Source of the DNA: a virus | Direction: 5' to 3' (one strand) | Length of the DNA stretch: 64,000 nucleotides | Virus record (IMG/VR): IMGVR_UViG_3300020429_000529 | Coordinates: 262,762-326,761 of that record | Shown: positions 1 to 24,905 of the stretch, one piece after another | How the letters are laid out: the number at the start of each line of letters is the position of its first letter | How positions within the stretch are numbered: the first letter of the stretch is position 1 | Program-made: the position numbers and the translations under genes | The notes under the pieces: generated by a model | The model's database searches: none | What the model saw: only the letters and a program-made list of their open reading frames with translations | What the model was told of the DNA's origin: nothing

Positions 1-1
1 C

Positions 2-1249
2 GATAGCGGCAAGTCTTCGCTGATTGATGTGTATCTCGAAGATATCCTCGAAGATGATTCGATCAACATTCAGGTTATCAACGCCCCTGAAGTTCTCGAT
101 GACTTTGCGTTCCTTGCGGTCAATCGATCGAATCTTGCTGGTTCGATGACCGAATCGCAGCAAGGTCGAGTATTTGGTCTTGTCCTTGATAACCGAGGCG
201 TTTGGGATGTTTTGATTGGTCCCGAGGCTATTCTGCGAGAGACAGATACCGGCGGTGTATTCTCATGGCTGAGCGAAGAGTATACAAGAGAACTCATCGA
301 TGACGATGAGGCGTATGACTTCGAGTTCAATAATCCTGCTGGCTTGCCTTCAGAGGTACGCAATGCGATCTCATTGATTCCTGTTCCTGGGTATCCTCAA
401 GTTTGGACGCTTCGTATAGAGAAAGGCGTCAAGGATTATCTGAGGGCTCAGCGAACGGGCGCTAATCGCAACTCAACAACAGGTTGTTCTGTTGATATTG
501 ACATTCTGGTAACAGGCAGATTTACCGGCGTTCAAGGCATCTGCAGAGTCACAGTCTTCTTTGACGTTTACTGCGTATTCGATACTGGACTTTGTGATGT
601 CTTCTGGAATCTCATCAATCCGCCAGAGCCTTCTGGTCCAGATTTGATTGAGAACACGCTGGCTTTCTCGTATCAGTCGCTTACTGACTGTAATAACTTG
701 ACCCAGGACGCCGATGGAGACAATACAGAGATCAATGCTCCTGTTCTTGTCAATGTCACAGGCGTTCCTGTCTTTGAGAATGGCAATGGTCTGCTTCTTC
801 TTAAGTCCTACTATTCTGCCGAAGTTCAAGGCTTCTACTTCCCGAGAGGCGAAGACCTCACTGGTGTTCAGTATGAAGACTGTTCGTCTATTGGAGACAA
901 CTTGCAGCTTGCAACGAGGCTGAATACGCCTGCAATCTATCTGCCTGATGCGCCAGATCAACCGATTACGGACCCGTTTGAGATTGCTGCTCAGTTGGAG
1001 ACCGCGGATTCGTACATGTACGTCAAGCCTGCTTTCCAGTTCCCCTCTTCAGATCCCCAGAGAGATTGCGGGGCCGAAGAGATTGTCATTATTGGCGTAG
1101 GCTACCAGTTCAAGAACTGGACCGCAAGTTCGGGAACTCGTTCGGACGATATCATGTTTGGAGTCAATCTTGTTCTGCCAGGCGGCGTGTTTGCCTCGCC
1201 TGATTTGGACCTTTGTTACCGATACTACTACAACAGAGAGGAAAGCTAA
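2..1249 (+). CDS. hypothetical Cys-containing protein, 5' partial (frame open to window edge; track start 29 is GTG)
   Basis: 406-aa ORF with no upstream in-frame stop to position 2; no recognisable motif. Confidence 0.45.
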   Translation, partial: DSGKSSLIDVYLEDILEDDSINIQVINAPEVLDDFAFLAVNRSNLAGSMTESQQGRVFGLVLDNRGVWDVLIGPEAILRETDTGGVFSWLSEEYTRELIDDDEAYDFEFNNPAGLPSEVRNAISLIPVPGYPQVWTLRIEKGVKDYLRAQRTGANRNSTTGCSVDIDILVTGRFTGVQGICRVTVFFDVYCVFDTGLCDVFWNLINPPEPSGPDLIENTLAFSYQSLTDCNNLTQDADGDNTEINAPVLVNVTGVPVFENGNGLLLLKSYYSAEVQGFYFPRGEDLTGVQYEDCSSIGDNLQLATRLNTPAIYLPDAPDQPITDPFEIAAQLETADSYMYVKPAFQFPSSDPQRDCGAEEIVIIGVGYQFKNWTASSGTRSDDIMFGVNLVLPGGVFASPDLDLCYRYYYNREES

Positions 1250-1253
1250 GTAG

Positions 1254-3092
1254 ATGGGCGCAGGGTTTGACGAACGCAAATGGTGGCACACGGTCCTCAA
1301 GGTTGGGTCCGTAGAGTTCGGTACGCGAAGCGGAGCCGCTAACGAAAACCCTAATGACCGCATCACGGCCCGAGTTCAAGACACCTGCGATCTCACAGAC
1401 ATTCCTGTTCCCGCATGGGATGGTCTTGAATCGCCAGGCTTCTTTATCTACCGTCCTGCTTTTTCTGATGTTTCCGGTGCTGCCAAATCGATTGATTCCT
1501 ATGAGGCCGCTCTGGACCTTGCAAATAGAGAGCCGTTCACTTACGAACTCTACGTTGCGTATGATTCGTCGGATGCGGCCTGTACGTCCGTAGGGCCTCC
1601 TGACACTCATGATCCCGATGTCTTTGCCTCTCTTGTAGATGACTCAGGATTCGTTTTCACGCATCCCAATATCGCTTCCATCGATTCGATCGGCTGTTGC
1701 GAGATCGATCTTGACAATCCAGGCGACCCCATCGATCCAGGCGATCTTCAAGAGTGTTCTCGCATCTGGTATTTGAACATTGAGTCATCGCCGCAGTTGT
1801 ATTCGTATGACTTTGACAGAGATCCTGGACAAGAGATTCAGGATCGAGGGACTATGGCGTCTCAGCTTGGCGGCGGAACTAACTTCCATGACATCGCATG
1901 GGATGATGACGATCGCCTTTGGGCGCTTGAGTCAAACGGTATCCGTCAGGTTATTCCTGGTAGTTCTTCGGTCATTGCGAATGTTCTCGATTATGTCACT
2001 ATAAACGGCGATACATCAAACCTTTTCCCTATATCTGTGAGTTCTACGGGTTCTCCGGGTATGACTTACAATCAGCATAGCCAGCGCATGTATATCACTG
2101 CAAATGGTAGGCTGTTTGAGTTGGAGAAATCAGGAACAGGACAGCCCCCGACTCAGTGGACTGTTGTTAGAGAGGCGGAAGTAGGAAGCGATCTTCGAGA
2201 CCTGGCTGCAGACCCTTTCAATGTGATGTATTGCATCTACAACGATAGTCTTGCAACTGTAGACATTGCAGATGCCTTCGGCACCGTTCAGTATGTCAAT
2301 GGCGAAACAGGCGACTTTGCCAACTTCAATGGTCTTGATTTCATCCTAACCCTTGGAGGCGGTAGTCTCGCAACGCTATATGGTCTTGATGTAAACGGAG
2401 ATCTGGTTGAGATTGATTTTACTGATGGATCGAAGACGATCATATCGGATATCACGAGTAATCCTGGTTCAGTAGTTGGAGCATCAAGTTGTCAGGCTGG
2501 CGAAGACAATAGCCTTCCGGTCTTCCCGTTCTATCCCGGCGAATCTCCATGGATTTTCATGCTCGATGGTTCTACCTCTATGAATGGCATTCCTACTGGT
2601 CGAACCGATTCGAGGTGGGAGATTCTCATCAACGGTATGGTTGCCTTTATCGAGAACAATGTTCGTCTTGGAGAAAGGTTGTTCATGGTTATCTTCGGAC
2701 CAGAAAACAACCCAAGACTTTCGCCAGAGTTCACTTTCAACACAACAGGAGATATTCAGGCGGCGGCTGATTGGATTGCAAACCTTTCTGGTTTCCCAAA
2801 CAACTCCACGAACTTCTGCGAAGATGGACCCTTCAATACATCATGGCTTGATAGGCCCGAGTTCAACGGTATCAACAGCATCGTTGTTGTTGGAGACGGC
2901 GGATTCAGCGCGCCTTGCCCTGATGGAAGCGCGCTATTTGACTACTGTTTGAACGTTATCACGTTCTTCAGAGGGAACGGAAATCCCAACGCTATTGTTC
3001 GAGCGGTTGGCATCTACCCCAGTTCAGACGGACGAGCCGACTTGATGCAGTTGGGCGCGGCTGGCGACGGCGGTTACACGGAATGGATCTAA
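1254..3092 (+). CDS. hypothetical protein with C-terminal vWA-like domain
   Basis: 612-aa ORF; DxSxS-like motif IFMLDGSTSM followed by a Rossmann-like segment suggests vWA/MIDAS. Confidence 0.5.
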   Translation: MGAGFDERKWWHTVLKVGSVEFGTRSGAANENPNDRITARVQDTCDLTDIPVPAWDGLESPGFFIYRPAFSDVSGAAKSIDSYEAALDLANREPFTYELYVAYDSSDAACTSVGPPDTHDPDVFASLVDDSGFVFTHPNIASIDSIGCCEIDLDNPGDPIDPGDLQECSRIWYLNIESSPQLYSYDFDRDPGQEIQDRGTMASQLGGGTNFHDIAWDDDDRLWALESNGIRQVIPGSSSVIANVLDYVTINGDTSNLFPISVSSTGSPGMTYNQHSQRMYITANGRLFELEKSGTGQPPTQWTVVREAEVGSDLRDLAADPFNVMYCIYNDSLATVDIADAFGTVQYVNGETGDFANFNGLDFILTLGGGSLATLYGLDVNGDLVEIDFTDGSKTIISDITSNPGSVVGASSCQAGEDNSLPVFPFYPGESPWIFMLDGSTSMNGIPTGRTDSRWEILINGMVAFIENNVRLGERLFMVIFGPENNPRLSPEFTFNTTGDIQAAADWIANLSGFPNNSTNFCEDGPFNTSWLDRPEFNGINSIVVVGDGGFSAPCPDGSALFDYCLNVITFFRGNGNPNAIVRAVGIYPSSDGRADLMQLGAAGDGGYTEWI

Positions 3093-3096
3093 AGAC

Positions 3097-4098
3097 ATGA
3101 GAGACCCATTTGATGTAAGCCAATATAAGACCTCGTTCGGATTGAACGAGAACTATGCGCCGAATCCGTTTTCATTTGCGGACTTCACGGAATCTTTCGC
3201 GCTCGTCGCAGAGCAAATCCGAATCCGTCAAGCATGTATTCATGTTGGTTTCGGAGTCCCGCTTGATCTGTTTACCAATGTAGAAGCGTATGATGTTTCT
3301 ACTCCTGCTTCGTTGACCGCTGGTGTTGAGCTATTTCAAGATGCTGTGATTGAGCTTGTTGAAGGTACGATCGTCGATCAGTATGCCAAACTACCAGGCT
3401 GCGGTCTGTTTGTTGGCTTCTACACGTTTACCTCGAACGGGTTGCCGATTCTTGGCGAAGGCAGTATCGCTCCGGGAGGAGTCTTTACACCTCCGCCCAA
3501 TCCTGATGACATCACAGACATCATTGATTTTGCGAAAGCGATTGGCGAACGCCTCAATGACATCATCTTTGCGCTGAACAACCTCAGTTTCATTCATGGC
3601 AAGATGGTTTACGAGTATCCGTTCGATGATTCTTGCGGCGATGATTCGTCTCCTGGAACTACTGGTATTTCATCATCGCCAGGTTCATCGCCTGGTTCGT
3701 CAGTTGGTTCATCGGTTGGTTCATCGCCTGGTTCGTCAGTTGGTTCAACGCCTGGAACAGGATCTTCGCCTGGTTCGTCGGTTGGTTCGTCCCCGAACTC
3801 CTCGGTCGGATCATCCCCGAACTCTTCGGTCGGCTCTTCGCCTGGTTCTTCTCCGAACTCGTCGCCTGGTTCGTCTGGCGGTTCTACTCCATCAACAGGA
3901 ACCTCTGCCGGTTCGTCGCCTGGCTCCTCGCCCGGTTCCACTCCGGGAACTGGTTCGTCGCCTGGATCTTCGTCTGGTTCTCCGCCTCCAACGTCGCCAG
4001 GCTCTTCGTATGCTTCGTCTTACGGAAGCCCGCCCGTTTCGCCTGTCGGACCCGTTTCGCCGATCTTTGTCGGACCTGGTGTTGCTCCTGTTGTTTGA
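3097..4098 (+). CDS. Ser/Pro/Gly-rich tandem-repeat (mucin/collagen-like) protein with N-terminal globular domain
   Basis: Globular N-terminus of about 185 aa, then SSPGSSVGSSPN-type repeats encoded by a DNA tandem repeat. Confidence 0.6.
   Translation: MRDPFDVSQYKTSFGLNENYAPNPFSFADFTESFALVAEQIRIRQACIHVGFGVPLDLFTNVEAYDVSTPASLTAGVELFQDAVIELVEGTIVDQYAKLPGCGLFVGFYTFTSNGLPILGEGSIAPGGVFTPPPNPDDITDIIDFAKAIGERLNDIIFALNNLSFIHGKMVYEYPFDDSCGDDSSPGTTGISSSPGSSPGSSVGSSVGSSPGSSVGSTPGTGSSPGSSVGSSPNSSVGSSPNSSVGSSPGSSPNSSPGSSGGSTPSTGTSAGSSPGSSPGSTPGTGSSPGSSSGSPPPTSPGSSYASSYGSPPVSPVGPVSPIFVGPGVAPVV
3655..4020 (+). repeat. coding tandem repeat (about 18-36 nt units, ggttcatcgcctggttcgtcagtt-like)
   Basis: Direct repetition visible in the sequence; encodes the S/P/G repeats of the 3097..4098 protein. 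Confidence 0.7.
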
Positions 4099-4140
4099 TG
4101 TTTTGGCCGATACACATGATGAAGCCTTTTGGGATGATGA

Positions 4141-5187
4141 ATGTCAGAAGAGAAGCCTATACAAGTCAAGGTTCCCCCGCCGCGTAAGCGTACTGATCCG
4201 AATGCGGCCTACGTCAACAAAGGCGCAGTTCCGGGCAACCCTGACAATCTAACAGTTGAAGACGAAAAAGCCTTCAAGGGATTCATCCCTAAGAGAGGCG
4301 AGATGGCTCTGTATGATTCGCAAGGCCACAACTTCAACATGCGAGATATGTATCGAGGGTCTCAGGCCTTTCTCGTACTTTCAGGCCCATCCCTCAATGA
4401 TCTTGATCTCTCGCAACTAAGAGAGCGACGAGGCATTGTGACAATGGGAGTCAACAACTCATGGGTTGTTTACAAGCCTCAACTGTGGGTTGGAGTAGAT
4501 GATCCTGGTAACTTTGTAGACATTGGATGGAAAGACCCGTCCATAACAAAATTCGCGCCCGCTGGACATTGGCATAAATGGCTTGTTGTCAAAGAAGACA
4601 ACGGCACATTCCGCCGTAGCCAGTTTAGAGTAGATGACATGCCTAATGTCTACTACTTCCGTCGAAATCACAACTTCGATGTCAAGAAGTTTCTTCATGA
4701 ACCAACCGTCAACTGGGGCAACGAAGACAAGGGCATTGATGCTCTTGGCATCAAGGGCGGGCGGAGCGTTATGCTCTCTGCCATCAAGATTCTCTACTAC
4801 CTTGGCTTTCGAACAGTCTATATGCTCGGCGCTGATTTCAACATGTCATCGGAAGCAGACCAGAACTATGCTTTCAAGCAGCACAGAGACAGCGTAAGCG
4901 TTTCGGGAAACAACGCAACCTATGCAAAGCTCAACAAGCGATTCACTGCCTTGCTGCCAGAGTTTGCGGAAGAAGGCATGCGAATCTACAACTGTTACCA
5001 GAAGAGCGGACTAACAGCCTTCCCGTACATGAGCTACAACGAAGCATTGGATCGAGCCAGCGCAACTTGTAGTAAGCCCATTGACACTGAGGGTTGGTAC
5101 GATCGCAAGGAACGAGAACGAGCAGCAGAGAAGGCTCGCAAAGAGCAAGAAAAGAAGGCAACTGAAGAAGATGAAAGCGATCGCTGA
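4141..5187 (+). CDS. hypothetical protein, possibly glycosylation-associated
   Basis: 348-aa ORF co-oriented with two glycosyltransferase-like genes; basic/acidic charged C-terminal tail. Confidence 0.45.
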   Translation: MSEEKPIQVKVPPPRKRTDPNAAYVNKGAVPGNPDNLTVEDEKAFKGFIPKRGEMALYDSQGHNFNMRDMYRGSQAFLVLSGPSLNDLDLSQLRERRGIVTMGVNNSWVVYKPQLWVGVDDPGNFVDIGWKDPSITKFAPAGHWHKWLVVKEDNGTFRRSQFRVDDMPNVYYFRRNHNFDVKKFLHEPTVNWGNEDKGIDALGIKGGRSVMLSAIKILYYLGFRTVYMLGADFNMSSEADQNYAFKQHRDSVSVSGNNATYAKLNKRFTALLPEFAEEGMRIYNCYQKSGLTAFPYMSYNEALDRASATCSKPIDTEGWYDRKERERAAEKARKEQEKKATEEDESDR

Positions 5188-5882
5188 TGGCTTTGTACGT
5201 TTCACTCTATACGAAGAACACCGCTTACGAGCGCATTGCAGGTCAGCTTGAAGAATCGCTGAAGAAGTTCGACCTTCGATACAGGATCTACGCTGTCGAA
5301 GATCAGGGTTCTTGGACAAAGAACACCTATCTCAAGCCAGAGATCATTCTCGATGCCTTAGAAGGCGAAGAAGACATCGTATGGATTGATGCAGACAACA
5401 TTGTGTTGAGGCGTCCTGAAATCTTCGATGACGGTATGGATTGCGATCTGGCTTTTCATAGTCGCATTGTAGATGATGGAGGTTGGAGTCCGTTGTCATC
5501 GGTCATGTATTGGAAGCAGACCCAGGCTTCTTTAGAGCTTGTTCGCCTCTGGCTTCAAAAATCTCAACAAGGCGAGCTTGGCAAAGCAGGCATGAAGATC
5601 CCTATTGAGCCTGGTTTTGTTACTCGCATGTATACAGACAAGCAAAACGATCAACATACGTTTGCAAATGCCCTTTGGGAACTGGTCAACGAAGGTCGAG
5701 ACATTCGCATTGCTGACCTTTCCAAGGAGTATGCCATGAAGTACGACTCTGTGAATCGAAGCTTCCATGATCCATACATCATCATGAATCAGGCGGGTCG
5801 TATCTTCAACAAGGAAGAAGGATCAAAGCTAAGAAAGAAGCGCCTAAATACCGATAGAGATAGATGGGAAGGCGCTGTCTGA
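5187..5882 (+). CDS. nucleotide-diphospho-sugar transferase-like protein
   Basis: WIDADNIVL DxD-type motif; start ATG overlaps upstream stop (ATGA). Confidence 0.5.
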   Translation: MALYVSLYTKNTAYERIAGQLEESLKKFDLRYRIYAVEDQGSWTKNTYLKPEIILDALEGEEDIVWIDADNIVLRRPEIFDDGMDCDLAFHSRIVDDGGWSPLSSVMYWKQTQASLELVRLWLQKSQQGELGKAGMKIPIEPGFVTRMYTDKQNDQHTFANALWELVNEGRDIRIADLSKEYAMKYDSVNRSFHDPYIIMNQAGRIFNKEEGSKLRKKRLNTDRDRWEGAV

Positions 5883-5894
5883 GAAGGAGCAAAC

Positions 5895-6566
5895 ATGGAC
5901 GCAGTAAGGATTTTCATTGGTAGCGACATCTACAATGTCAAAGCCGAACGAGCATTGATTTTCTCGATCAAGCATCACGCTTCAGTCCCGACTGAATGCA
6001 ACATCATGAGTCGCTTTGACCAGCATGACACATGGACAGGTTGGCAATGCACCGATCAATGGGCTACCTGTTTTAGCTGCTTCCGTTGGGGCATCCCTGC
6101 GGCATGCGGATTCGAGGGTCGAGCGATCTACCTTGATAGCGATCAGATCGTTCTTGCTGACATTGCAAAGCTTGCAAACATCGATCTCAAGGGGAAGGCG
6201 ATTGGAACAACGCCAAAGCGGGAATCAAGCGTTGCTGTATTTGATTGCGCCAAGTTCAAGGATTGGGATCAGTTCCAGCTTGATGATCTGAAGCAGAACG
6301 CTGCCAAGACCAATCAATACTACAAGTGGCTACGAGATGCTGGCGAGGTAGAGTTTATCTCTCAGCAATGGAACTGTCTCGACGGAGAGGGCTACGATCC
6401 TGTTGAAACGAAGCTCATCCATTACACAAAGCTCACAACGCAGCCTTGGCATCCTGCTCCGCACCGATTCCAATACAAGCCGCATGATCGACCTGATCTT
6501 GTTGAAATCTGGCGTCGTTACTATGAGCTATCCTACGATCATCCCGAAGTTCTTGAGAAGCCCTGA
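5895..6566 (+). CDS. glycosyltransferase family 8-like (glycogenin/LPS glucosyltransferase fold)
   Basis: GT8 signatures YLDSDQIV (DxD) and HYTKLTTQPWHP (HxxGxxKPW-like). Confidence 0.6.
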   Translation: MDAVRIFIGSDIYNVKAERALIFSIKHHASVPTECNIMSRFDQHDTWTGWQCTDQWATCFSCFRWGIPAACGFEGRAIYLDSDQIVLADIAKLANIDLKGKAIGTTPKRESSVAVFDCAKFKDWDQFQLDDLKQNAAKTNQYYKWLRDAGEVEFISQQWNCLDGEGYDPVETKLIHYTKLTTQPWHPAPHRFQYKPHDRPDLVEIWRRYYELSYDHPEVLEKP

Positions 6567-7255
6567 GGCTTCGCCGATAGTTCTCGGCACTTGTGATGGT
6601 CATGGTAGTTGGGCTGCTTGAGTTCATCTGAGCCGCTCGGAGCCATAATACCGACAAGGGCATGCTTATCGCCTCGAAGAACCGGCGCTCCTTGATGGAG
6701 CATCCAGGAATCGAACAAAACTCCGTGACCTCTCTTGACAGGCAAGGATAGAACCTTGCCTTTTTCATTGATGCGGAACTGAGTTTCTCCGCCAATGAGG
6801 TTGTGACTTTGAAAGTCAGATAGGTAGACAAGGAATGTCCCGATTCTATCAGGCATGAGGTCATTGGCATCAGAATGCCAAGTAAACTTCATTTCGGGCT
6901 TGTACCAGAGATATTGCCAGAGAGCATAGTTGAGATCCCAGGGATCCTGATCGGACTTGAGAAGATCCGTAACCAATGGCCTCATGTCTTCAAGCATTCT
7001 TGCAAAGTAGAGTTGTTCGGGAGTCATTCTGGATGCCTCAAGACAAAGCACATCTCGACGCTTCTTCTTGATCTTCATCTCTTTGTAATGATTGCCAACT
7101 CCGCCTTCGACGTAGGATTCTTTGGCGTTGTCTCCAATGAGATTCAAGATGTAGTCGCACTCTTCCGGAGTGAGAAGCTCAAAGGTCCATATCTTACCAG
7201 GCAAGACCTCTTTCATCTTGAGTTTTTTGATATCTACCTTGAAGTGTTCTCCCAT
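6539..7255 (-). CDS. 2OG-Fe(II) oxygenase, prolyl 4-hydroxylase-like (track ORF extends to 7468 with a low-complexity N-terminal extension)
   Basis: HSDANDL...TFLVYL...GGET.F....PK.G.LFDS..LHQG matches the P4H HxD...H/R-x-S core; ATG at 7253-7255. Confidence 0.6.
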   Translation of the reverse strand: MGEHFKVDIKKLKMKEVLPGKIWTFELLTPEECDYILNLIGDNAKESYVEGGVGNHYKEMKIKKKRRDVLCLEASRMTPEQLYFARMLEDMRPLVTDLLKSDQDPWDLNYALWQYLWYKPEMKFTWHSDANDLMPDRIGTFLVYLSDFQSHNLIGGETQFRINEKGKVLSLPVKRGHGVLFDSWMLHQGAPVLRGDKHALVGIMAPSGSDELKQPNYHDHHKCRELSAKPQGFSRTSG

Positions 7256-7515
7256 GGAATCTCTATCGGCTGGCCGATATAGATCACATGAGCGGATGCC
7301 CTTTTCACAACAAATCTCAAGGCAAGTTCCCAGAGCAGGATAAATTCGAGTTGTCGATTTATCGTCTTCACCCTGACGGGGCTCGTTTTGAGAACGCAGA
7401 ACCGACTCGGAAGGGCGAGGCTCACAAAAGTCAGAATGAAGTTGGAGCCCTGAGATTCTGCGGACCATTTGTCCATGCTGGCTCTTGCGGAGTTTGGGCT
7501 TATCCGCCTGTTGAT

Positions 7516-8133
7516 ATGGACATCACATATCTCGGAGATGGTCAATGGGATATCGAGCAACTCTCTGAGTATACGCCGCTTGACGGAATCGTTATCAAGA
7601 ACAACTTGAGAACAGAAGACAAGTTTCGATCGATCTATCGAGGCGGTCGGATCAGCGTGGGTAAAGTTGAACCTGATCTGATTCAGATTTGGACTGGTTG
7701 CATATTCAGAACTCCGCCAGGTTGGGGACTGCATGTTCGTCAGCCGATCAACTTCCCCGAGGCCTACAACAGGCCATATCACATACAAGAGGGGATCATT
7801 GAGTCAGACTGGCTTTGGTATGACATCTGGTTCAATATCAGATTTCATCGCGCAAATGAAAAAGCAGAACTACGCAGAGACATGTGGCCTCCTCTTGCTC
7901 AGCTTGTCCCCGTGAGAAAAGAAGCCTACGCAAAATGCGAAATCCAAGATCAGATCCTTGACAGGAAAACTGAGGATGGCGGCGAGGTTTGGGATTTCTG
8001 GCAAGAATACAACTACCAGAAATGGTACGCAAAGAACGAAAAAGACTCACGAACGTATAATCGGACCAGGAAGCTTCTCAGAGGCGAGGAGCGAAGAAAT
8101 AAAAGCCCCGGAGACGGTTCCACAAAGGAATGA
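7516..8133 (+). CDS. hypothetical protein (alternative longer start at 7288 would overlap the oxygenase gene)
   Basis: First ATG that clears the divergent gene is at 7516; no motif recognised. Confidence 0.35.
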   Translation: MDITYLGDGQWDIEQLSEYTPLDGIVIKNNLRTEDKFRSIYRGGRISVGKVEPDLIQIWTGCIFRTPPGWGLHVRQPINFPEAYNRPYHIQEGIIESDWLWYDIWFNIRFHRANEKAELRRDMWPPLAQLVPVRKEAYAKCEIQDQILDRKTEDGGEVWDFWQEYNYQKWYAKNEKDSRTYNRTRKLLRGEERRNKSPGDGSTKE

Positions 8134-8163
8134 ACCGGCCTCCCTCAACTCGAAGTTAAGGGT

Positions 8164-8790
8164 ATGAGGAAGAGCTTTGAGAATGTCAAAAGTATAACTC
8201 TCAGAGGCAGACGATATCGGGTTTATCTGGTCACAAGGATGGGGACCGAAGATAACCCGATCTATGGTCTTTGCTCTCCGCCCAGCGAAAAAGGGCGATG
8301 CATATCCTACTACATTGGCTTGAAAGGCGAGAGGCGTCTTGATGTTCTCATTCATGAGATGCTGCATGCCTGTTTCTGGGACATCGCAGAAGAAGGCATC
8401 CAGTTCGGCGCAACATCGATAGCGAAGGCGCTTTGGCGTATGGGGTATCGCCTCAGCACAGACGAAGAAGTGCCCGTTGTCCCGCCCGACGTTGATTACG
8501 TCACGATCCGAGGTCGGCGATACAGGTTTGAACGAGTCTCAACGAAGGAAGTATGGTTTCATGCAGGATACCATACTTGGACTTCTGCTCCGCATGAGAA
8601 GAACAAGTTCATGAGGATCAAGAAGGGGATCAAGAAAGAGACAGAGCTTCAAGCGATTCTTAAGAGTCTCATCACAGCATGCTACTGGGACATGGATAGC
8701 GAGTCTGTTCGAGAAACGGCCAAGGACATTGGTCATGCTCTTTGGAGAATCGGATATCGTCGTCGAGCCAAGGACATTGATAGCAAATAG
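8164..8790 (+). CDS. internally duplicated two-domain protein, first copy with HExxH motif
   Basis: Two copies of about 95 aa (ITLRGRRYRV...WRMGYR and VTIRGRRYRF...WRIGYR); HEMLH only in copy 1. Confidence 0.5.
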   Translation: MRKSFENVKSITLRGRRYRVYLVTRMGTEDNPIYGLCSPPSEKGRCISYYIGLKGERRLDVLIHEMLHACFWDIAEEGIQFGATSIAKALWRMGYRLSTDEEVPVVPPDVDYVTIRGRRYRFERVSTKEVWFHAGYHTWTSAPHEKNKFMRIKKGIKKETELQAILKSLITACYWDMDSESVRETAKDIGHALWRIGYRRRAKDIDSK

Positions 8791-8803
8791 TCGAAGAACA
8801 GGT

Positions 8804-9160
8804 ATGAACTGGTACAAAACTCTCAAAATGGCTCAGATCGGCGCGCCTGTAGACATGAATGCTACTGAAGCGGTCTATCAAAGACTTCTTCAAGCGGATC
8901 GCTCACAAGCCGATGGAGCGTCCGCTGTGGACGACCTCTACGGACAGGGCTACGACCCAGCCTCGATCGAGGGAGCCATTCAGGAGGCTGTCAGACGCAT
9001 CGTGGGGCCTAATGCTGACGAGACCATGCTATCGCCTGCTCAGCAGAGCGTTTTGATGGCTCTGAGGTCTCAATCCCAGGCACCTCAGCCGCCTGGTCTT
9101 CCTATGGAGCCTATTGATGCTCCGATGGATGAGCCCATTGGCGAAGCATGGTACAATTGA
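8804..9160 (+). CDS. hypothetical protein, MNWYK N-terminal family
   Basis: ATG 8804 preceded by gaagaacaggt; N-terminus MNWYKTLK shared with three ORFs at 40.5-42.4 kb. Confidence 0.5.
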   Translation: MNWYKTLKMAQIGAPVDMNATEAVYQRLLQADRSQADGASAVDDLYGQGYDPASIEGAIQEAVRRIVGPNADETMLSPAQQSVLMALRSQSQAPQPPGLPMEPIDAPMDEPIGEAWYN

Positions 9161-9195
9161 AAAAAGGCCCCGCCCGAAGGCGAGGCCTTTGTTTG
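9160..9195. terminator. bidirectional rho-independent terminator between convergent genes
   Basis: aaaaaGGCCCCGCCcgaaGGCGAGGCCtttgttt, with A-tract 5' and T-tract 3'. Confidence 0.7.
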
Positions 9196-9213
9196 TATCA
9201 GCTTGGCTGAGAG

Positions 9214-10866
9214 TTAGTCGGTCAGCGATCCCGACATGAACGACGAGATGACGTTCGGAGTCGCCGTGTCGAAGCCAACAACATCGAGCATTCCCGGGTC
9301 GCTGGGGTCAGCGATCGAGAAGCCGTTGGAGTTCATCGCAACGACTGCGAGCTTTGCATCCTCAACCCTCTTGGCGCGGTAGCGCTTGAGAGCCTCGAAC
9401 GGGTGGATCGAGCCGTAGTAAGTCTCCGAGTCCGTGAGGACCATGAAGGAGTCGAAGTCATCCTGCAGCGACATGGCGTGCGTCATGGGCAGAGAGCAGT
9501 CCGTGCCGCCGTAGGTGAGACCCGACATCTTCTTGAGAACCTGGTCAAGACGCATACGCGGAGTGATTCCAGCGTCCTTGATTCCCGTATCGAAGACCGT
9601 GATCTCGTAGTTGTTCTCGACGCGAGCCGTGACCATGCTGAGTACCGCCGCAGCCTCCGCGCAGGAGACGTTTTCGATACCGCTGCAAGCAACGCCCATC
9701 GAGCCCGAGGCGTCGATTCCGATGAAGTAGTTCTTACCCGTCGCCTCGACGTTGCCGAACGACGCGTAGAAGGCCTCATCCAGAGCATCAACGATGCGCT
9801 GGTCCGCCTGCCAGGTAAGCTTGCCTCGGAATCCTCCGCCCTGCGAGTAGGTCTTGAGCGCTACAAGGACCGAGAGCGGGTGCACTCGGCTCTTGCGCAG
9901 GTACGACTCGTCCGTGAGCTTGTCAAGAACGATCGCACGGTTCGCGCTCTTACCCGTACCAAGCACGCCGTAGCTCGTCAGACGACCGAGCGAACGGATC
10001 AGCGCCGTGAGCGGCATGCCCGGAAGCATGACCTCCCAAACCTCGCCCTTCGAAGCGAACTCCTTCGGGATCAGTTCGTGCGGCAGGTTGATCTTGTCCG
10101 CGCGGTACTTCTCGATGAGGTCAGCGACCTCCTGAGCCGAACCCGCAGCCTTCATCTGCTCCGCAGCGCGGAGAATCTTCAGGTCTGCAGCGATACGCCC
10201 CGGAAGCTTGCCCTTCGTGACGTAATCGTAGACGCGGTTGTGCTTGGTGTCGCCGAACGGGTGAGCCTTACGCATCAGGTCGCGGTGCGACCAGCGAGAC
10301 TGCGTAACGCCCTCCTCGGTAACGCGCTGCGGGTACTTCACAACCTGGTACGCCAGGCGCGAAGCATCCATCTCGTTGTACCAGCGAGCGATCGCCTTAC
10401 GGAGGCCCGTACCCCAGCCGCGCATCGCCGAAACGTACTGCGCGAACTGGAACAGGTGCGTACCGATACGAGCGACCTTCGGCAGCGAAGCGAGCGCGTA
10501 GGAACGCACTTCGGCGTCCTCAGACGCAGCCGCGATCGCAAGAGCGAAGAGCGCAGGCTCGTTCTTCGGAGCGCGTCCGGCGTCAGAGATCGCGACGATC
10601 TCATCGACCACTCGCTTTCCGTCCTCCTTGAGGCAGCGCAGGATGCAGTTGGCGTTGTCGATCGTGAGCTTGCGCTCGCCGACGTAGTAAGTACCGCCCT
10701 CTGAGCCGAGGATCAAGAATCGGCTGAGCCGATCCCAATCGGAGACCTGAAAGACGTACCCGCCTGCGTTGTTCTTGACCTGATTCTTCCCAAGAGCCTT
10801 GCGGGTCTGAGGAGTCGTTCGCATTCCAAAGTGAGTTGAGTACGCCATTTCTGTCACCCCTTTCAA
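9214..10866 (-). CDS. rsr: Ro60/TROVE-domain ribonucleoprotein (Rsr) with C-terminal vWA domain
   Basis: 550 aa; TROVE-like N-terminal region and C-terminal vWA with DxSGS MIDAS (IGIDASGSM); same architecture as Ro60/Rsr. Confidence 0.8.
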   Translation of the reverse strand: MKGVTEMAYSTHFGMRTTPQTRKALGKNQVKNNAGGYVFQVSDWDRLSRFLILGSEGGTYYVGERKLTIDNANCILRCLKEDGKRVVDEIVAISDAGRAPKNEPALFALAIAAASEDAEVRSYALASLPKVARIGTHLFQFAQYVSAMRGWGTGLRKAIARWYNEMDASRLAYQVVKYPQRVTEEGVTQSRWSHRDLMRKAHPFGDTKHNRVYDYVTKGKLPGRIAADLKILRAAEQMKAAGSAQEVADLIEKYRADKINLPHELIPKEFASKGEVWEVMLPGMPLTALIRSLGRLTSYGVLGTGKSANRAIVLDKLTDESYLRKSRVHPLSVLVALKTYSQGGGFRGKLTWQADQRIVDALDEAFYASFGNVEATGKNYFIGIDASGSMGVACSGIENVSCAEAAAVLSMVTARVENNYEITVFDTGIKDAGITPRMRLDQVLKKMSGLTYGGTDCSLPMTHAMSLQDDFDSFMVLTDSETYYGSIHPFEALKRYRAKRVEDAKLAVVAMNSNGFSIADPSDPGMLDVVGFDTATPNVISSFMSGSLTD

Positions 10867-10878
10867 TCGACTCAGAGC

Positions 10879-11424
10879 CTATTCTCTGAGTATGTGAGTG
10901 ATCTCACAAACTAAATCTTCAATGTGCCTGACATTGCCTCTCGGCAACGCAAACCTGTCTCTGTTCCGTCTAATGAATGACCTTATGCGTTGCAGGTCAT
11001 TCTTGTCAAGTTCCCTCGACGAAATTTCTGCCCGAACTGCTTCCTTCCACTCTTTCAGGTCAGATTTCCGAATCTCCAAGCGAGGATCAAACGGAGTCAT
11101 CCAACCAGCTTCGATGTTCGCCTCCATGAAGTCGCTATAAACCCAACTGCTGATCTCGTATTCATCCTCATGGAGGAAATCTCGACCGGCCTTGTGGATC
11201 GAAAGCGCTCGATGGTGCCCGTCTCGTATGTAGAGGGCCTCGTCTTCGAAGCGAGCGATCTGAATCAGTTGTAGGTGCCCTTCTCCTGTTTCATTCAAAT
11301 GGCGCTGAAGCTCTGCAAGGTTGAACCTGCCTCCCTTGCGGACATGTTCGATCATCCGAGAGATTTGGTCAGTGTCTCTCAGATCGGCATGAGTCGGCAA
11401 CAATTCAGCAATGCGCAGCATCAT
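10879..11424 (-). CDS. ParB/sulfiredoxin-like nuclease domain protein
   Basis: IRDGHHR motif (ParB N-terminal DGHHR signature); stop lies 13 nt upstream of the rsr start. Confidence 0.6.
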   Translation of the reverse strand: MMLRIAELLPTHADLRDTDQISRMIEHVRKGGRFNLAELQRHLNETGEGHLQLIQIARFEDEALYIRDGHHRALSIHKAGRDFLHEDEYEISSWVYSDFMEANIEAGWMTPFDPRLEIRKSDLKEWKEAVRAEISSRELDKNDLQRIRSFIRRNRDRFALPRGNVRHIEDLVCEITHILRE

Positions 11425-11490
11425 ACTGCCATTGTATCATGGTCCTATTCACATTGTTCGGAGGAACGTGGGATTCCTCATGTCAGTAAG

Positions 11491-11565
11491 CGGGGTACAC
11501 GGGGATCGAACCCGCAGCCTCCGGATCGACAGTCCGGTGTTCTTCCATGTGCGAACTCCTACCCC
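11491..11565 (-). tRNA. tRNA-Asp(GTC)
   Basis: Manual cloverleaf: GGGGTAG acceptor, anticodon loop CTGTCGA, T-arm GCGGGTTCGATCCCCGT, discriminator G; 75 nt; no encoded CCA. Confidence 0.65.
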
Positions 11566-11579
11566 GAGTTCTATGTAAG

Positions 11580-11653
11580 CGAGGCCGAAGGGACTCGAAC
11601 CCTCAGTCTCCGGATCGACAATCCGGGGCATTCACCAATTATGCTACGACCCC
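11580..11653 (-). tRNA. tRNA-Asp(GTC), second copy with U32 anticodon-loop variant
   Basis: Cloverleaf GGGGTCG...; loop TTGTCGA; T-arm GAGGGTTCGAGTCCCTT; 74 nt. Confidence 0.6.
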
Positions 11654-11799
11654 AAGTTTTCAAGACGGCAGACTGGTCTTTCACCAATCACGCAGCACAA
11701 CAGAGCGCAGTATCAGAAGGTCTTGGCGTCCGATCAAGGACAGATCCTTATGAGTAACCCCGATGTCGCATGCGGTTGTCCCGCATCGCTACCGTCAAA

Positions 11800-11927
11800 A
11801 GCCGCTGGCAGGATTCGAACCTGCATCCTCCCGCTCCATATGCGATAACCGTTTGTCATCGACTCCTTCGCAGGAGTATGGGTTCGACGAACGACCGTTA
11901 GGCGCTCTACCGTTGAGCTACAGCGGC
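11800..11927 (-). ncRNA. tRNA-like RNA (128 nt): canonical acceptor, D-arm and T-arm, but anticodon arm replaced by a structured domain of about 80 nt
   Basis: GCCGCTG/CAGCGGC acceptor, GCTCAACGGTAGAGC D-arm, GCAGGTTCGAATCCTGC T-arm; no 5-bp/7-nt anticodon hairpin; insert has a CTCCT-GCGA-AGGAG GNRA hairpin inside a CCATA/TATGG stem. Confidence 0.5.
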
Positions 11928-11947
11928 AATCAGTATTCAGTTGTAAA

Positions 11948-12073
11948 TGGCCGGGGCAGGATTCGAACCTGCAAGATCAATTTATGAGATTGATGTGTTG
12001 ATAACCTTCATTCATTCGGCTCATTGCTGAGCATGTTATCGACAAAGGGTTGGTGCCATTACACTACCCGACC
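11948..12073 (-). tRNA. tRNA with CAT anticodon (Met/Ile2-type) carrying a D-loop insertion of about 52 nt (126 nt total)
   Basis: Acceptor GGTCGGG/CCCGGCC; D-stem GTGT...ACAC enclosing the insert (GATAAC/GTTATC stem plus GCTCA-GCAA-TGAGC hairpin); anticodon arm TCAAT-CTCATAA-ATTGA; T-arm GCAGGTTCGAATCCTGC. Confidence 0.45.
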
Positions 12074-12087
12074 TAAGTTCCTTTCAA

Positions 12088-12161
12088 TAGCGGATACGGG
12101 GATCGAACCCGTCTCTGCGGCTTATGAAACCGCCCTCTGCACACCAGCCGAGTCATCCGCA
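12088..12161 (-). tRNA. tRNA with CAT anticodon (Met-type); 1:72 is U-U unpaired
   Basis: Anticodon arm GCGGT-TTCATAA-GCCGC; T-arm ACGGGTTCGATCCCCGT; acceptor 6 bp GCGGAT/ATCCGC plus T1/T72 mismatch; 74 nt. Confidence 0.5.
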
Positions 12162-12380
12162 ATCTAAACACGGTTTGCAGGTCATTCTCCTGCCGGGCCT
12201 ACCCTCGGATCAGTCCGAGATCGGTCAGCGTTTGCAACCGCTCCTGCTTCTCGCAGGCGGAACCGTAAAACGTAGCGCCGTCTTTCGACGAGCGCTACAT
12301 GGGGCCGGTTGCGGGTGCCGAAGCACCAGCGTGGCCTCCACCACTTGCTCTTTTGCTTGAGAAGCAAGAAACTCGTTCAA

Positions 12381-12454
12381 TAGCGGGGGAAGGATTCGAA
12401 CCTCCGACCTTTTGGTTATGAGCCAAATGAGCTACCAGACTGCTCTACCCCGCA
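12381..12454 (-). tRNA. tRNA-Met(CAT), initiator-like
   Basis: Near-identical to bacterial tRNA-fMet: GCGGGG-TA-GAGCAGTCTGGTAGCTC...CTCATAA...GGTTCGAATCC; 1:72 U-U mismatch; 74 nt. Confidence 0.6.
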
Positions 12455-12532
12455 ATCAATAAAACAGATATGTTGGCGTTGCTTGGACCTTTGTGTGAGA
12501 TAAGTTAACCAATCAACTTCGACCTGTTTTAA

Positions 12533-12604
12533 TCAGAGTGACAGGAATCGAACCTGCTTAGACCTGGCCCCAAACCAGGCGACCTGCCAATGGCCCACAC
12601 TCTG
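12533..12604 (-). tRNA. tRNA-Pro(TGG)
   Basis: C1-G72, A73; anticodon arm CCTGG-TTTGGGG-CCAGG; T-arm GCAGGTTCGATTCCTGT; 72 nt. Confidence 0.65.
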
Positions 12605-12780
12605 TAATCGATGCTTGCTCCGTCCTCACAACCTCTTACTCTTGGACAGAATCGGGAGCTTACCCCGACAGACTTGCCTTCTTAGGGCGTGCGATCGTGC
12701 GCCGAGGTTTGGTAACGCCGATCTTATCTCCCCGCCTAAACGGGTCTCTGCAAACATCATCTGCTATTCGATTGTCAAAG

Positions 12781-12855
12781 TCGGAGTGATTGGATTCGAA
12801 CCAACGACCTTCTGTCCCCCAGACAGACGCGCTCACCAAGCTGCGCCACACTCCG
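12781..12855 (-). tRNA. tRNA-Pro(GGG)
   Basis: C1-G72, A73; anticodon arm TCTGT-CTGGGGG-ACAGA; T-arm GTTGGTTCGAATCCAAT; 75 nt. Confidence 0.65.
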
Positions 12856-13059
12856 AAACAAGAACAAGTATGGGGTGCCAAGGGAGACCCGACAGATAAT
12901 GTAAGCTCCTGCCTTTGACAGCAGTACGAGACACTTTGCGATTCGCTGGGCTCTGCCGATCTCAGCAAGCTGAGATTTACCCGAGAATCATGTCTCAAGC
13001 TTTTCGCGTAATTGATAACCCTACAGCTTCGACCTGTTCTTCTTATTCAGTTTTCAAAG

Positions 13060-13133
13060 TCAGGATGAAAGGATTTGAACCTTCGACCTCTTACTCCCGA
13101 AGCAAGCGCTCTGCCAAGCTGAGCTACACCCTG
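13060..13133 (-). tRNA. tRNA-Pro(CGG)
   Basis: C1-G72, A73; anticodon arm CTTGC-TTCGGGA-GTAAG; T-arm GAAGGTTCAAATCCTTT; 74 nt. Confidence 0.6.
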
Positions 13134-13894: not shown

Positions 13895-14530
13895 TCATTG
13901 GGTCGTCATGCCGACTTCGGCGATCCCCATTTCTTTGCGGATCTCGGTCGAAGACAACCCGATCAGCGCATCATTGAGAGGCTCTTCGGGTACAAAGTTG
14001 ATCGGCAACTGACCTGGCAGATCGTTGATCGTCCAGAGCTTGTCGTTCATGCGCCTCGGGTAGACATGGAACAAAGCTCTGATGCCCTGCGTCCCGACTG
14101 TCGAGTGCATGGAGACGATCCGCAGCGCCGTATCGATACCGATATGGATATGGATGTCTCGGACAGCAGCAAGAACGCCAGTCTTGTCGTAGAAGAGAGG
14201 ATGCTTCGAGACGATCAGCGGACCTTCGTCGTTGAACTGAGTCGCTCGCCCTTCCATGATCTTCGACTCGATCGTGCCCTTGTTGGCTCGGTCGATTGAC
14301 ATCTCGTAGCAGACATGGGCCGTAGGACCGGCGATCTCCGCTGCTCGCTGGTAGATGGCTCGATGGCCGTCATGGATGGGATTGAAAGATCCTGGTACGA
14401 GATGCAGTACCGAATCGCCGAACGGATGTTCGTCGCCGTTGATCGGATCGATCGCGCCGTTGGGATGGCGGACAAAAGCAAACAACGGGTCGTTCTGACA
14501 GGTGTGGTATGCGATCTCAAAGGTATACAT
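13895..14530 (-). CDS. nicotinamide/nicotinate mononucleotide adenylyltransferase (NMNAT, cytidylyltransferase superfamily)
   Basis: GSFNPIHDGH, the (H/T)xGH nucleotidyltransferase motif; start overlaps the upstream stop. Confidence 0.65.
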   Translation of the reverse strand: MYTFEIAYHTCQNDPLFAFVRHPNGAIDPINGDEHPFGDSVLHLVPGSFNPIHDGHRAIYQRAAEIAGPTAHVCYEMSIDRANKGTIESKIMEGRATQFNDEGPLIVSKHPLFYDKTGVLAAVRDIHIHIGIDTALRIVSMHSTVGTQGIRALFHVYPRRMNDKLWTINDLPGQLPINFVPEEPLNDALIGLSSTEIRKEMGIAEVGMTTQ

Positions 14531-15217
14531 TCAACCCTCTCCGTCAAGCCAGTGGTTGTGGTCTTCGGTCAGACCTCCGCTGCCAGAATCGTAGAGACGA
14601 GCAATATACTCGCCATTATTCAAGCTGGCAAACGACGGGTCATTGAGAAGCAGCGACATAACGGCGCGAGAGATAGATTCATCTTCCGCTCGACGCCGAC
14701 CGGCGAGCGCCTGCATGTTGACGCCTCCGTCAACAATGTAGAGAGCTTCCCATTCGGCCTTCTCTTGCTTCGAGATGGCGATCTTGTAGAACTCTCGGCT
14801 TCCGTCAGGTCGATGGATGCCTACAAAGGCTCGGTTATCGCCTCGACGCCAGCGCGTCGTCGTCAGCGCCGCTGAAATTACGATGCTGATGATCGGAGCA
14901 ACGCTGTTGCCCCTGTTGCGATGTTCGAGCGCTTGCAGGTACTTGGAGATGGTCTTCTCGGAGCAGAAGTCGAACTTGTCGAGCGCTCCAAGCGTCGGCT
15001 CAAGGAACCTCAGCGTTTCGCCCTGCTCGTAAGGCATATGCATGCCCAGGATCCTCGCAGAGGCTCCAGGAACGATCAGAAGCTCTCCGAGGCTCATGCC
15101 GCCGCCCGTAGCGAACAGCGACAGCAGAGGAGCCTTAGAGCCGTCTCCTACCTCGTCCAGATACCTCTCAGAGAACTGGACGACGGCTTCGGGATAATCG
15201 AGTACCCATTGACTCAT
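14531..15217 (-). CDS. CinA C-terminal domain-like protein (possible NMN deamidase PncC-like)
   Basis: LFATGGGMSLGELLIVPGASARILGMHMPY resembles the CinA_C ESCTGG...PGSS...GG.V.Y signature; lies between NAMPT and NMNAT. Confidence 0.4.
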   Translation of the reverse strand: MSQWVLDYPEAVVQFSERYLDEVGDGSKAPLLSLFATGGGMSLGELLIVPGASARILGMHMPYEQGETLRFLEPTLGALDKFDFCSEKTISKYLQALEHRNRGNSVAPIISIVISAALTTTRWRRGDNRAFVGIHRPDGSREFYKIAISKQEKAEWEALYIVDGGVNMQALAGRRRAEDESISRAVMSLLLNDPSFASLNNGEYIARLYDSGSGGLTEDHNHWLDGEG

Positions 15218-15225
15218 GATCGCTC

Positions 15226-16788: not shown

Positions 16789-16811
16789 TGGTTGTTCCTT
16801 GCTCTTGCGGC

Positions 16812-16982: not shown

Positions 16983-17016
16983 GGCTGTTCCTCCCTAATG
17001 CTCCACGCAGCCCTTG

Positions 17017-18129: not shown

Positions 18130-18144
18130 CTCGGGTCTCCTGAG

Positions 18145-18180: not shown

Positions 18181-18200
18181 AGGCAAAGTGAGGGGGTGAT

Positions 18201-24818: not shown

Positions 24819-24823
24819 TCGAA

Positions 24824-24895: not shown

Positions 24896-24905
24896 AGATT
24901 GTAAA

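Follow-up and report, generated by a model that had tools for sequence, protein, structure and literature searches.

What does a cluster of putative glycosyltransferase genes make when it stands directly behind a gene for a repetitive protein in a viral genome? The cluster in question occupies positions 3097-7468 of a 64,000-nucleotide stretch of the IMG/VR record IMGVR_UViG_3300020429_000529 (positions 262,762 to 326,761 of that record; the whole stretch is referred to here as the window) and encodes a serine-rich repeat (SRR) protein, a Maf-like protein, a protein with a conserved DxD motif, a GT8 protein and a prolyl 4-hydroxylase (P4H)-family oxygenase. The original prediction read these five genes, all of whose open reading frames (ORFs) are present where it placed them, as a source of collagen-like or mucin-like fibres made by hydroxylation of Pro-rich repeats. 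We conclude instead that the region is probably a protein O-glycosylation module in which the Maf-like and GT8 proteins would glycosylate the Ser-rich tail of the SRR protein to give a product that is itself probably associated with the virion. The tail is probably sugar-coated on serines rather than converted into a hydroxyproline-containing, collagen-like fibre.

The 151-aa tail of the SRR protein contains 58 Ser, 31 Gly, 27 Pro, 13 Val and 10 Thr residues (38% Ser, 18% Pro) and is composed of approximately 24-26 imperfect tetrapeptides of the form SSxG or SSxN (SSPG, SSVG and SSPN), with a period of 4 aa and no Gly-X-Y runs. The description of these repeats as perfect does not survive, and the DNA tandem repeat said to encode the tail exists but is likewise imperfect and covers only part of it: Tandem Repeats Finder reports 6.9 copies with 74% matches at 3673-3755 and 2.3 copies with 87% matches at 3778-3833. 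The tail follows a conserved N-domain for which the AlphaFold2 model (pLDDT 80.7) predicts three long helices and for which fold searches return only generic helical-bundle matches; C102 is among its invariant positions and C180 is nearly invariant. This N-domain family is rare, with 19 representatives found in 1.84e9 proteins by exhaustive HMMER searching, and its C-terminal parts are hypervariable; word-index homologue searches with the N-domain and with the 231-aa DxD protein returned nothing or the query alone. As anticipated, repeat number differs between related genomes, the proteins being 295-391 aa long in loci with Ser-type tails and 198-821 aa long across the family. Reading the sequence, we found no signal-peptide-like hydrophobic stretch in the N-terminus (MRDPFDVSQY...) and no LPXTG motif at the C-terminus. 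Gene calling placed spurious reverse-strand ORFs within the Ser-rich repeat of two relatives and missed the real gene (L001:9331-9774(-) and L006:8741-9939(-)), and the low-complexity gene appears to break assemblies, so that Ser-rich repeat proteins are under-represented in protein databases.

The gene that follows the SRR gene had been assigned no function; its product is predicted to have the fold of Maf-like protein O-glycosyltransferases. The match to PF01973 (MptE-like, the Maf central domain) spans residues 187-236 and lies below the cut-off (23.3 bits against 34.6; E 6.2e-5), and some homologues carry a precomputed match to the same family. The protein also matches phrog_4603, annotated as "alpha-2,3-sialyltransferase" (E 1.6e-8), and a 30-sequence profile of the family matches Cst-II at 5e-3. 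Its central domain shares a fold with Maf and with the GT42/GT29 sialyltransferases, and the 348-aa protein comprises this core and one C-terminal helix; neither flagellin-recognition modules in the protein nor a flagellin or TPR gene in its block was found. Single-sequence searches of the PDB with the four enzymes were uninformative. Maf enzymes O-glycosylate Ser/Thr residues of flagellin in the cytoplasm, with cytidine monophosphate (CMP)-activated pseudaminic acid (Pse), legionaminic acid (Leg), N-acetylneuraminic acid (Neu5Ac) or 3-deoxy-D-manno-octulosonate (Kdo) as donors (PMC11339370; bioRxiv 10.1101/2020.06.03.131540; 10.1101/2023.12.03.569772). We propose that the Maf-like protein is a putative initiating Ser-O-glycosyltransferase and, because its fold is Maf/sialyltransferase-like, that a CMP-activated ulosonic or nonulosonic acid is the most likely donor.

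The GT8 protein scores above the gathering threshold of PF01501 (27.2 bits against 24.3, over residues 76-119), and the family is above cut-off in all six GT8 orthologues (best E 3.3e-7). The D81-S82-D83 motif does not vary among the six orthologues and, in alignments, falls on the DxD strand of UGGT and GT8 structures. Towards the C-terminus the protein reads H176-Y-T-x-L-x-x-Q183-P184-W185, in which H176 and Q183-P184-W185 are invariant; compared with the HxxGxxKPW motif, the His and the PW are kept, whereas the spacing is one residue longer, the Gly is absent and the Lys is replaced by Gln. With PF01501 above its cut-off and both the DxD and the H..PW residues in place, the earlier GT8-like assignment is borne out. 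The best PDB match of the GT8 profile is weak (E 0.08) and is to the GT8 entry 5gvv, which we take to be pneumococcal GlyE, acting on PsrP. We propose that the protein is a GT8-family, retaining hexosyltransferase-like enzyme with a glycan-extending role.

The 231-aa protein encoded between the Maf-like and GT8 proteins had been called DxD nucleotide-sugar transferase-like. The motif is real (D68-x-D70 is invariant in six homologues), but no glycosyltransferase family can be assigned: there was no match in Pfam (searched also with four members of the family), NCBIfam or PHROG, a profile search of the PDB gave nothing below E 0.1, and hhalign comparisons with the GT8-like profile and with an approximate glycogenin sequence gave probabilities of ~5%. 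The Skp1 alpha-galactosyltransferase 6mw5 is a weak PDB match for both the GT8 and the DxD proteins. A GT-A transferase is possible. Homologues of the DxD protein are encoded directly downstream of the Maf-like gene in contigs L001, L002, L007, L010 and L013 (in L010 and L013 the hidden Markov model (HMM) matches, at E ~1e-30, are to the gene immediately after Maf), and the protein is a conserved predicted partner of the Maf-like protein in three contexts.

The gene neighborhood is conserved. Five huge-phage contigs besides the window (L001, L002, L006, L007 and L008) are syntenic with it, and in each the order is a CCA-adding enzyme, a protein of ~1270 aa, a VWA protein, the repeat protein, the Maf-like protein, variable genes and the GT8 protein. 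The block of large, VWA, SRR, Maf-like, optional DxD and GT8 proteins is kept in the window and the five relatives at 35-63% identity, such that the clustering of these predicted genes exceeds chance. The window encodes the C-terminal part of the large protein, which is 49-62% identical to the C-termini of its five counterparts; no Pfam, PHROG or PDB match was found for the ~1270-aa protein. The VWA protein carries its von Willebrand A domain (VWA_2, E 0.0067) at the C-terminus, with a sequence, DGSTS, that reads as a DxSxS motif like that of a metal ion-dependent adhesion site; its profile matches the VWA domain of CLCA1 (9e-4) and the I-domain of integrin alpha-M, and its gene lies directly upstream of the repeat gene in 11 of 11 related huge-phage loci. 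The N-domains of the repeat proteins are 46-57% identical (four by blastp; that of L002 joins on alignment), and in all five relatives they run into (SSxx)n tails of differing length that are 38-48% Ser. Between or after the Maf-like and GT8 genes the complement varies, with the DxD protein in four of the six loci, the oxygenase in five, and other methyltransferases, GT9 and GT32 proteins and a family of 306-310 aa as further variable members; across loci, accessory genes of glycan-tailoring type encode FkbM-type and other methyltransferases, GT9, GT32, GT2 and GT25 proteins, RMNT_CmcI proteins and sulfotransferases. This is the pattern of a putative glycan-tailoring island.

The best case so far for the tail as substrate comes from loci in which its chemistry differs, for on the same scaffold, behind the same upstream genes, enzyme set and tail composition switch together. 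In six IMG/VR loci (L095-L100, of which L097 and L100 appear to be duplicates) the order CCA-adding enzyme, 1270-aa protein, VWA protein and N-domain protein is kept, and the tails are Pro-rich, of the form (SP)n, (PPPPS)n or (PPPTA)n, with 5-17% Ser and 10-74% Pro. The six Ser-type loci, window included, have 38-48% Ser and carry Maf and GT8; Pro makes up 1-2% of all five orthologous tails and reaches 18% in the window only. HMMs of the Maf-like, GT8, DxD and oxygenase proteins found no matches in the six Pro-type loci. Five of these have instead a ~500-aa DUF6734 gene directly downstream (E 1e-28 to 1e-36), and a weak C-terminal GT2 match was seen in two of the three DUF6734 proteins scanned (L097 and L098); in the sixth, L099, the contig ends within the tail gene and only a weak related match lies just upstream. 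For (SP)n/(PPPPS)n tails the DUF6734 protein is a candidate for the matching, alternative glycosyltransferase; its gene or match lies at L096:9894-11393, L097:9867-11381, L098:10061-11599 and L094:1313-1438. Some of the Pro-rich tails are followed by a Hint (intein/hedgehog-like) domain with the pattern C[FL][LA][AK]GT ... HN (P0128 and P0139; L095:875-2665, L096:8001-9884 and L097:8001-9854), and some of the proteins also have a Cys-rich globular module; this architecture suggests possible autoprocessing or covalent attachment of the tail end. Tandem N-domain paralogues with (PPPTA/PPPPT)n tails occur in a 488-kb IMG/VR genome (L098:7998-9053 and 9053-10048), and protein P0130, with a (PPPTA)n tail, is found on a 1.4-kb contig only.

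The pairing of a Maf-like gene with a Ser-rich gene also recurs outside the huge phages. Maf-like homologues with ~50% identity occur in Phycisphaerae/Planctomycetota genomes. Two prophages (L004 and L011) encode a tape measure protein, two tail proteins, a methyltransferase and then the Maf-like protein, directly followed by a 325-aa or ~370-aa protein of almost pure Ser, Gly, Thr and Asp; in L004, two GT32 genes follow before the prophage ends. In every one of the first 12 loci, L009, L010, L012 and L013 included, an S/T-rich low-complexity ORF lies no more than 3 kb from the Maf-like gene. A search of IMG/VR with the single Maf-like protein was empty, and an alignment-based scan gave 80 more loci, in 67 of which an S/T-rich ORF lies on the same strand at a distance of up to 2.5 kb and usually begins 26-1300 nt beyond the Maf match. 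In the other 13 (e.g., L019, L025 and L030) the contigs all end less than 250 nt past the Maf-like gene, so that every one of the 67 loci with at least 250 nt beyond it has such an ORF; the farther flank, for comparison, has four S/T-rich regions in 358 kb. Counted together, about ninety viral contigs carry the pair. PHROG and Pfam scans of the tail-module neighbors in L004, L013, L021 and L045 were largely empty. The adjacency of repeat proteins and predicted glycosyltransferases is conserved far beyond chance, and this adjacency, the Maf-like fold and the genuine GT8 protein uphold the original idea of a glycoprotein-making cluster around a repeat protein.

From gene identities at the level of fold or family, from synteny and from the co-variation of tail type and enzyme set, we infer what the enzymes act on, which sugar serves as donor and where the product resides, as follows. 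The SRR protein, a helical N-domain of ~180 aa with a disordered (Ser-Ser-x-Gly/Asn)n tail, would carry no signal peptide. The Maf-like enzyme would place the first sugar on tail serines in the host cytoplasm, as Maf does on flagellin, from a CMP-activated ulosonic or nonulosonic acid for which host CMP-Kdo and a Pse/Leg-type sugar are candidates, CMP-Kdo being the simplest because no donor pathway is seen in the window. The GT8 enzyme, and probably also the DxD protein, would then extend the glycan, and lineage-variable methyltransferases, GT9 and GT32 proteins and the P4H-family oxygenase would tailor it. The N-domain could dock the glycoprotein on a partner, perhaps the VWA and 1270-aa proteins that always precede it, and the product would be a mucin-like glycoprotein that is built into the virion, where it would form a fibre or coat that is flexible and glycosylated. 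Given the lack of a signal peptide and the equivalent gene that ends the tail module in a second phage lineage, incorporation into the virion appears to be the most likely fate, and virion display is suggested.

Several observations weigh against this model. The catalytic His of Cst-II has no clear counterpart in our own reading of the alignment, and no genes for nonulosonic-acid biosynthesis or a CMP-sugar synthetase were found among the ~40 window ORFs scanned. The substrate relationship is drawn from adjacency and co-variation only. As many as 79 of the 80 IMG/VR loci belong to one siphophage-like lineage, which brings the number of independent contexts to about six, not ninety. As to a virion location, the huge-phage block adjoins a CCA-adding enzyme and Ro60 rather than recognizable structural genes, and no PHROG or structural match to virion proteins was found for the N-domain, 1270-aa or VWA proteins.

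The first alternative to consider is that the enzymes act elsewhere, on phage DNA, on host envelope glycans or lipopolysaccharide (LPS), or on another virion protein, and that the Ser-rich protein is an unglycosylated disordered linker or spacer. In prophages the module stands at the prophage end, a frequent site of moron or lysogenic-conversion genes, and the GT8 and GT9 families are classically LPS-core enzymes. This alternative is nevertheless unlikely, given that an S/T-rich ORF accompanies the Maf-like gene in every informative IMG/VR locus and in each of some six independent contexts, that the predicted enzyme set changes with the tail type while N-domain and upstream genes stay constant, and that the oxygenase is of P4H type and not TET/JBP-like. 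Phage glycosyltransferases are known to glycosylate DNA or to change host surface glycans (PMC12619734, a review), whereas Maf-type enzymes are protein Ser/Thr O-glycosyltransferases (PMC11339370).

The second alternative is the chemistry of the original prediction, in which the oxygenase hydroxylates the prolines of the S-P-G repeats and the glycosyltransferases modify hydroxyproline (or nearby Ser), giving a collagen-, extensin- or arabinogalactan protein-like fibre analogous to plant hydroxyproline-rich glycoproteins (HRGPs) and to the cytoplasmic Skp1 hydroxyproline-glycosylation pathway. The identification of a convergent P4H-type 2-oxoglutarate-Fe(II) oxygenase is secure: the protein matches PF13640 (E 9e-11; 43 bits against a cut-off of 27), its H127-x-D129...H187...K197 residues are intact and invariant in five homologues, and its profile groups with P4Hs rather than with non-prolyl hydroxylases, the closest solved relatives being those of Bacillus anthracis (3itq/5iax, 4.7e-6) and PBCV-1 (5c5t, 6.2e-6), ahead of PiuC-type hydroxylases (0.015). 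The enzyme travels with the glycosyltransferase cluster in five of the six Ser-type genomes (the window, L001, L006, L007 and L008), most of the 27 prolines of the window tail fall in S-S-P-G/N units, and the Skp1 pathway, in which a cytoplasmic P4H acts together with glycosyltransferases including a GT8-like enzyme, offers a precedent to which the weak 6mw5 matches also point.

The distribution of the oxygenase does not follow that of proline, however. In four genomes (L001, L006, L007 and L008) it accompanies tails that are almost free of Pro; L002 has a Ser-rich tail, Maf and GT8 and lacks the oxygenase; and an HMM search found no oxygenase in the six loci with Pro-rich tails. It is Ser, not Pro, that is conserved among the tails, and the period of 4 aa is not that of Gly-X-Y triplets. 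The oxygenase is only 29-40% identical among loci, compared with 55-63% for its neighbors, and its place and orientation vary as for an accessory gene, the window copy being inverted relative to those of L001, L006 and L007. In L007 it is fused to an FkbM-type methyltransferase (Methyltransf_21; L007:12346-13776(+)) in a locus that adds a methyltransferase-GT9 fusion and a GT32 gene, which hints that the oxygenase may work within a glycan-tailoring pathway. Given its distribution we treat the oxygenase as an accessory tailoring enzyme whose candidate substrates are a sugar, another residue, or prolines particular to the window tail. The gene identifications therefore stand and the mechanistic link to proline fails; the proline-hydroxylation reading is not supported, and we rate it as quite improbable. 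A P4H gene beside a gene for a low-complexity protein is not in itself evidence of hydroxyproline chemistry; hydroxyproline has never been detected in PBCV-1 virions (PMC7019647).

The proposed connection between the Pro-rich repeats and an adjacent tRNA-Pro triplet fares no better. The triplet exists (anticodons tgg, ggg and cgg; 12533-13133(-)), in an array of two tRNA-Asp, three tRNA-Met and three tRNA-Pro, but is 5 kb away and is not conserved: in five syntenic relatives the 5-11 kb of sequence available beyond the downstream end of the cluster contain no tRNAs. Moreover, the 58 Ser codons of the tail exceed the 27 Pro codons, and the window has no tRNA-Ser. We accordingly reject the link.

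The last alternative, that the Maf-like protein is an MptE/TPK-like (pyro)phosphotransferase or nucleotidyltransferase that adds phosphate-containing groups to the tail serines, with GT8 acting on that group or independently, draws on the fold that MptE and TPK share with the Maf-like protein and is in our judgment very improbable.

Ser-O-glycosylation by the Maf-like and GT8 proteins, the reading that we prefer, has to be compared with known systems (Table 1 gives the components in the window). In the Maf systems of Campylobacter, Aeromonas, Shewanella, Clostridium and Magnetospirillum the acceptor is folded flagellin, whereas here it would be a disordered Ser-rich repeat tail; the phage-encoded enzyme is only 348 aa long, falls below the PF01973 cut-off, has no nonulosonic-acid pathway genes in view nearby and lacks N- or C-terminal flagellin-binding or TPR domains and a GlfM-like partner (10.1101/2023.12.03.569772). 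The Gram-positive serine-rich repeat proteins (SRRPs; GspB, Fap1 and PsrP) resemble the phage system in having short-period Ser-rich repeats of hypervariable number beside genes for cytoplasmic glycosyltransferases that include a GT8-type extender. They differ in that GtfA/GtfB (GT4) initiate, where the phage system would use the Maf-like protein, and in having a signal peptide, an accessory Sec system and an LPXTG anchor, none of which is seen here; the N-domain of the huge-phage protein is a novel helical bundle, and neither GtfA/GtfB nor accessory Sec families were found among the Pfam families of the block. The systems that combine P4H and glycosyltransferases (PBCV-1, B. anthracis, plant HRGPs and Skp1) and giant-virus fibrils share with it a P4H-family oxygenase, glycosyltransferases and a repeat protein, here too in a large virus, but the repeat Pro is not conserved, the oxygenase is absent at Pro-rich tails and Gly-X-Y is lacking; BclA-type collagen-like fibres are built of Gly-X-Y triplets, unlike the 12-nt/4-aa SSxG period found here. 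With a PF01973 score below the cut-off, flagellin-recognition modules, GtfA/GtfB and the other SRRP components missing and no Gly-X-Y, the module belongs to none of the Maf, SRRP and collagen-like systems.

The nearest viral precedent is the virion O-glycosylation of mycobacteriophages, reportedly described by Freeman and colleagues in 2023 in Cell Host Microbe (cited in PMC12619734), in which phage glycosyltransferases encoded beside structural genes modify C-terminal extensions of virion proteins. The siphophage-like lineage, in which the Maf-like/Ser-rich pair ends the tail module, resembles that arrangement. The mycobacteriophage acceptors are capsid and tail-tube subunits, however, whereas here the acceptor would be a dedicated repeat protein, and to our knowledge the mycobacteriophage enzymes are unrelated to Maf. 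A literature search found no published description of a phage module of Maf-like and Ser-rich proteins. On balance we think it likely that phages have a cytoplasmic Ser-O-glycosylation system in which a minimal Maf-like enzyme and a dedicated repeat acceptor combine the logic of SRRP and flagellin glycosylation.

Table 1. Features of the cluster and its flanks, in window coordinates
Feature	Position	Strand	Remark
C-terminal 406 aa of a ~1265-1314-aa protein	29..1249	+	window begins within this gene
VWA protein, 612 aa	1254..3092	+	
SRR protein, 333 aa	3097-4098	+	ORF
Conserved helical N-domain of SRR protein, ~182 aa	3097..3642	+	presumed anchoring or assembly domain
Low-complexity tail of SRR protein, ~151 aa	3643..4098	+	proposed O-glycosylation acceptor
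Imperfect DNA tandem repeats, period 12/24	3673..3833	+	encode part of the tail
Maf-like protein, 348 aa	4141-5187	+	ORF
DxD protein, 231 aa	5187-5882	+	ORF
GT8 protein, 223 aa	5895-6566	+	ORF
P4H-family oxygenase, 309-aa ORF	6539-7468	-	probable start 7255, i.e., 6539..7255
DUF6065 protein	7288..8133	+	PF19541, E 4e-12

The six plus-strand ORFs from 29 to 6566 are tightly spaced, with 42, -1 and 12 nt separating the SRR, Maf-like, DxD and GT8 genes, and the convergent oxygenase ORF overlaps the 3' end of the GT8 gene by 28 nt. Four oxygenase homologues align from the Met at 7255, and 7288-7468 is shared with the DUF6065 gene, so the oxygenase ORF as called is over-extended. The DUF6065 gene is a window-specific insertion beside the inverted oxygenase gene, from which it diverges with ~32 nt between the starts if the oxygenase begins at 7255; neither the five syntenic relatives nor the IMG/VR loci yielded a homologue, and its membership in the module is doubtful. 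Promoter and terminator scans were at chance level, with a single convincing terminator at 9163-9190.

We read the source of the window as a huge marine phage of ~500 kb. Because the window contains neither capsid nor tail genes, this reading rests on the IMG/VR classification and on PHROG hits. Public contigs of 498,618-502,461 bp, Tara Oceans material included, carry proteins identical to those of the window, and the relatives that bear the block are contigs of 192-265 kb, the others being IMG/VR viral genomes of 134-494 kb. Megablast of window positions 1-12000 found no DNA match to INPHARED phages. The host is probably a Gram-negative marine bacterium.

Besides at least 12 tRNAs, the window encodes, among other proteins, NAMPT, a Ro60/TROVE protein, a DNA methyltransferase, a sigma factor and a flotillin. 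Cargo unusual for a phage lies at 13895-18186, 32420-37363 and 54999-59792, three stretches that between them encode NAMPT and a nearby cytidylyltransferase-like protein, a GluR0-like ligand-gated K+ channel, a glutamine-synthetase-like protein, a MoxR-like ATPase with a DUF2201 metallopeptidase/VWA pair, a sigma-70 factor, a flotillin/SPFH protein and two OmpA-domain proteins with NMT1-like binding domains. The cytidylyltransferase-like gene (CTP_transf_like, 13895-14530) was considered as a donor-sugar gene and set aside, for only one gene separates it from NAMPT and NMN adenylyltransferase (NMNAT) is its more likely identity. The Ro60/TROVE gene (PF05731, PF25045 and phrog_850) adjoins an array of eight tRNAs at 9214-13133(-). 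An Rfam tRNA-like match of 128 nt at 11800-11927(-), not called by ARAGORN, could represent either a tRNA with an intron or a Y RNA partner of Ro60 that mimics tRNA in the manner of YrlA, and the Ro60/tRNA array together with the CCA-adding enzyme (PolyA_pol and HD) upstream in relatives suggests a theme of RNA repair or quality control. A second array at 24744-25150(-) comprises four tRNA-Glu genes called by ARAGORN and a fifth, tRNA-like match at 24906-24980 found by Rfam only.

More tentatively, and with less confidence than in the O-glycosylation module itself, we raise the possibility that huge marine phages and an unrelated Phycisphaerae siphophage lineage both make a dedicated mucin-like virion glycoprotein by a minimal Maf-type "sialylation" (with Kdo or a nonulosonic acid) of repeat serines, followed by GT8/GT9/GT32 extension to an LPS-core- or capsule-like glycan, with tail and enzymes swapped as matched cassettes. 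Although glycosylation by phages is in itself nothing new, few cases of protein glycosylation in phage particles are known, and Maf-type enzymes have so far been tied to flagellins; if our interpretation is correct, Maf-type protein glycosylation would here be seen for the first time outside flagella, and an SRRP-like system for the first time in viruses. Found as a compact two-gene pair in so many viral contigs, the system is directly testable by co-expression in Escherichia coli, and the pair could provide a small, sequence-tolerant O-sialylation or O-Kdo tag for glyco-engineering. The glycan coat may serve in attachment to host envelopes or to marine particles, or may protect the virion as a shield. 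Our analysis points to an investment by ~500-kb marine phages in a mucin-like glycoprotein whose tail chemistry and enzymes would be exchanged as matched cassettes, with a bearing on host recognition, particle adhesion and virion shielding.

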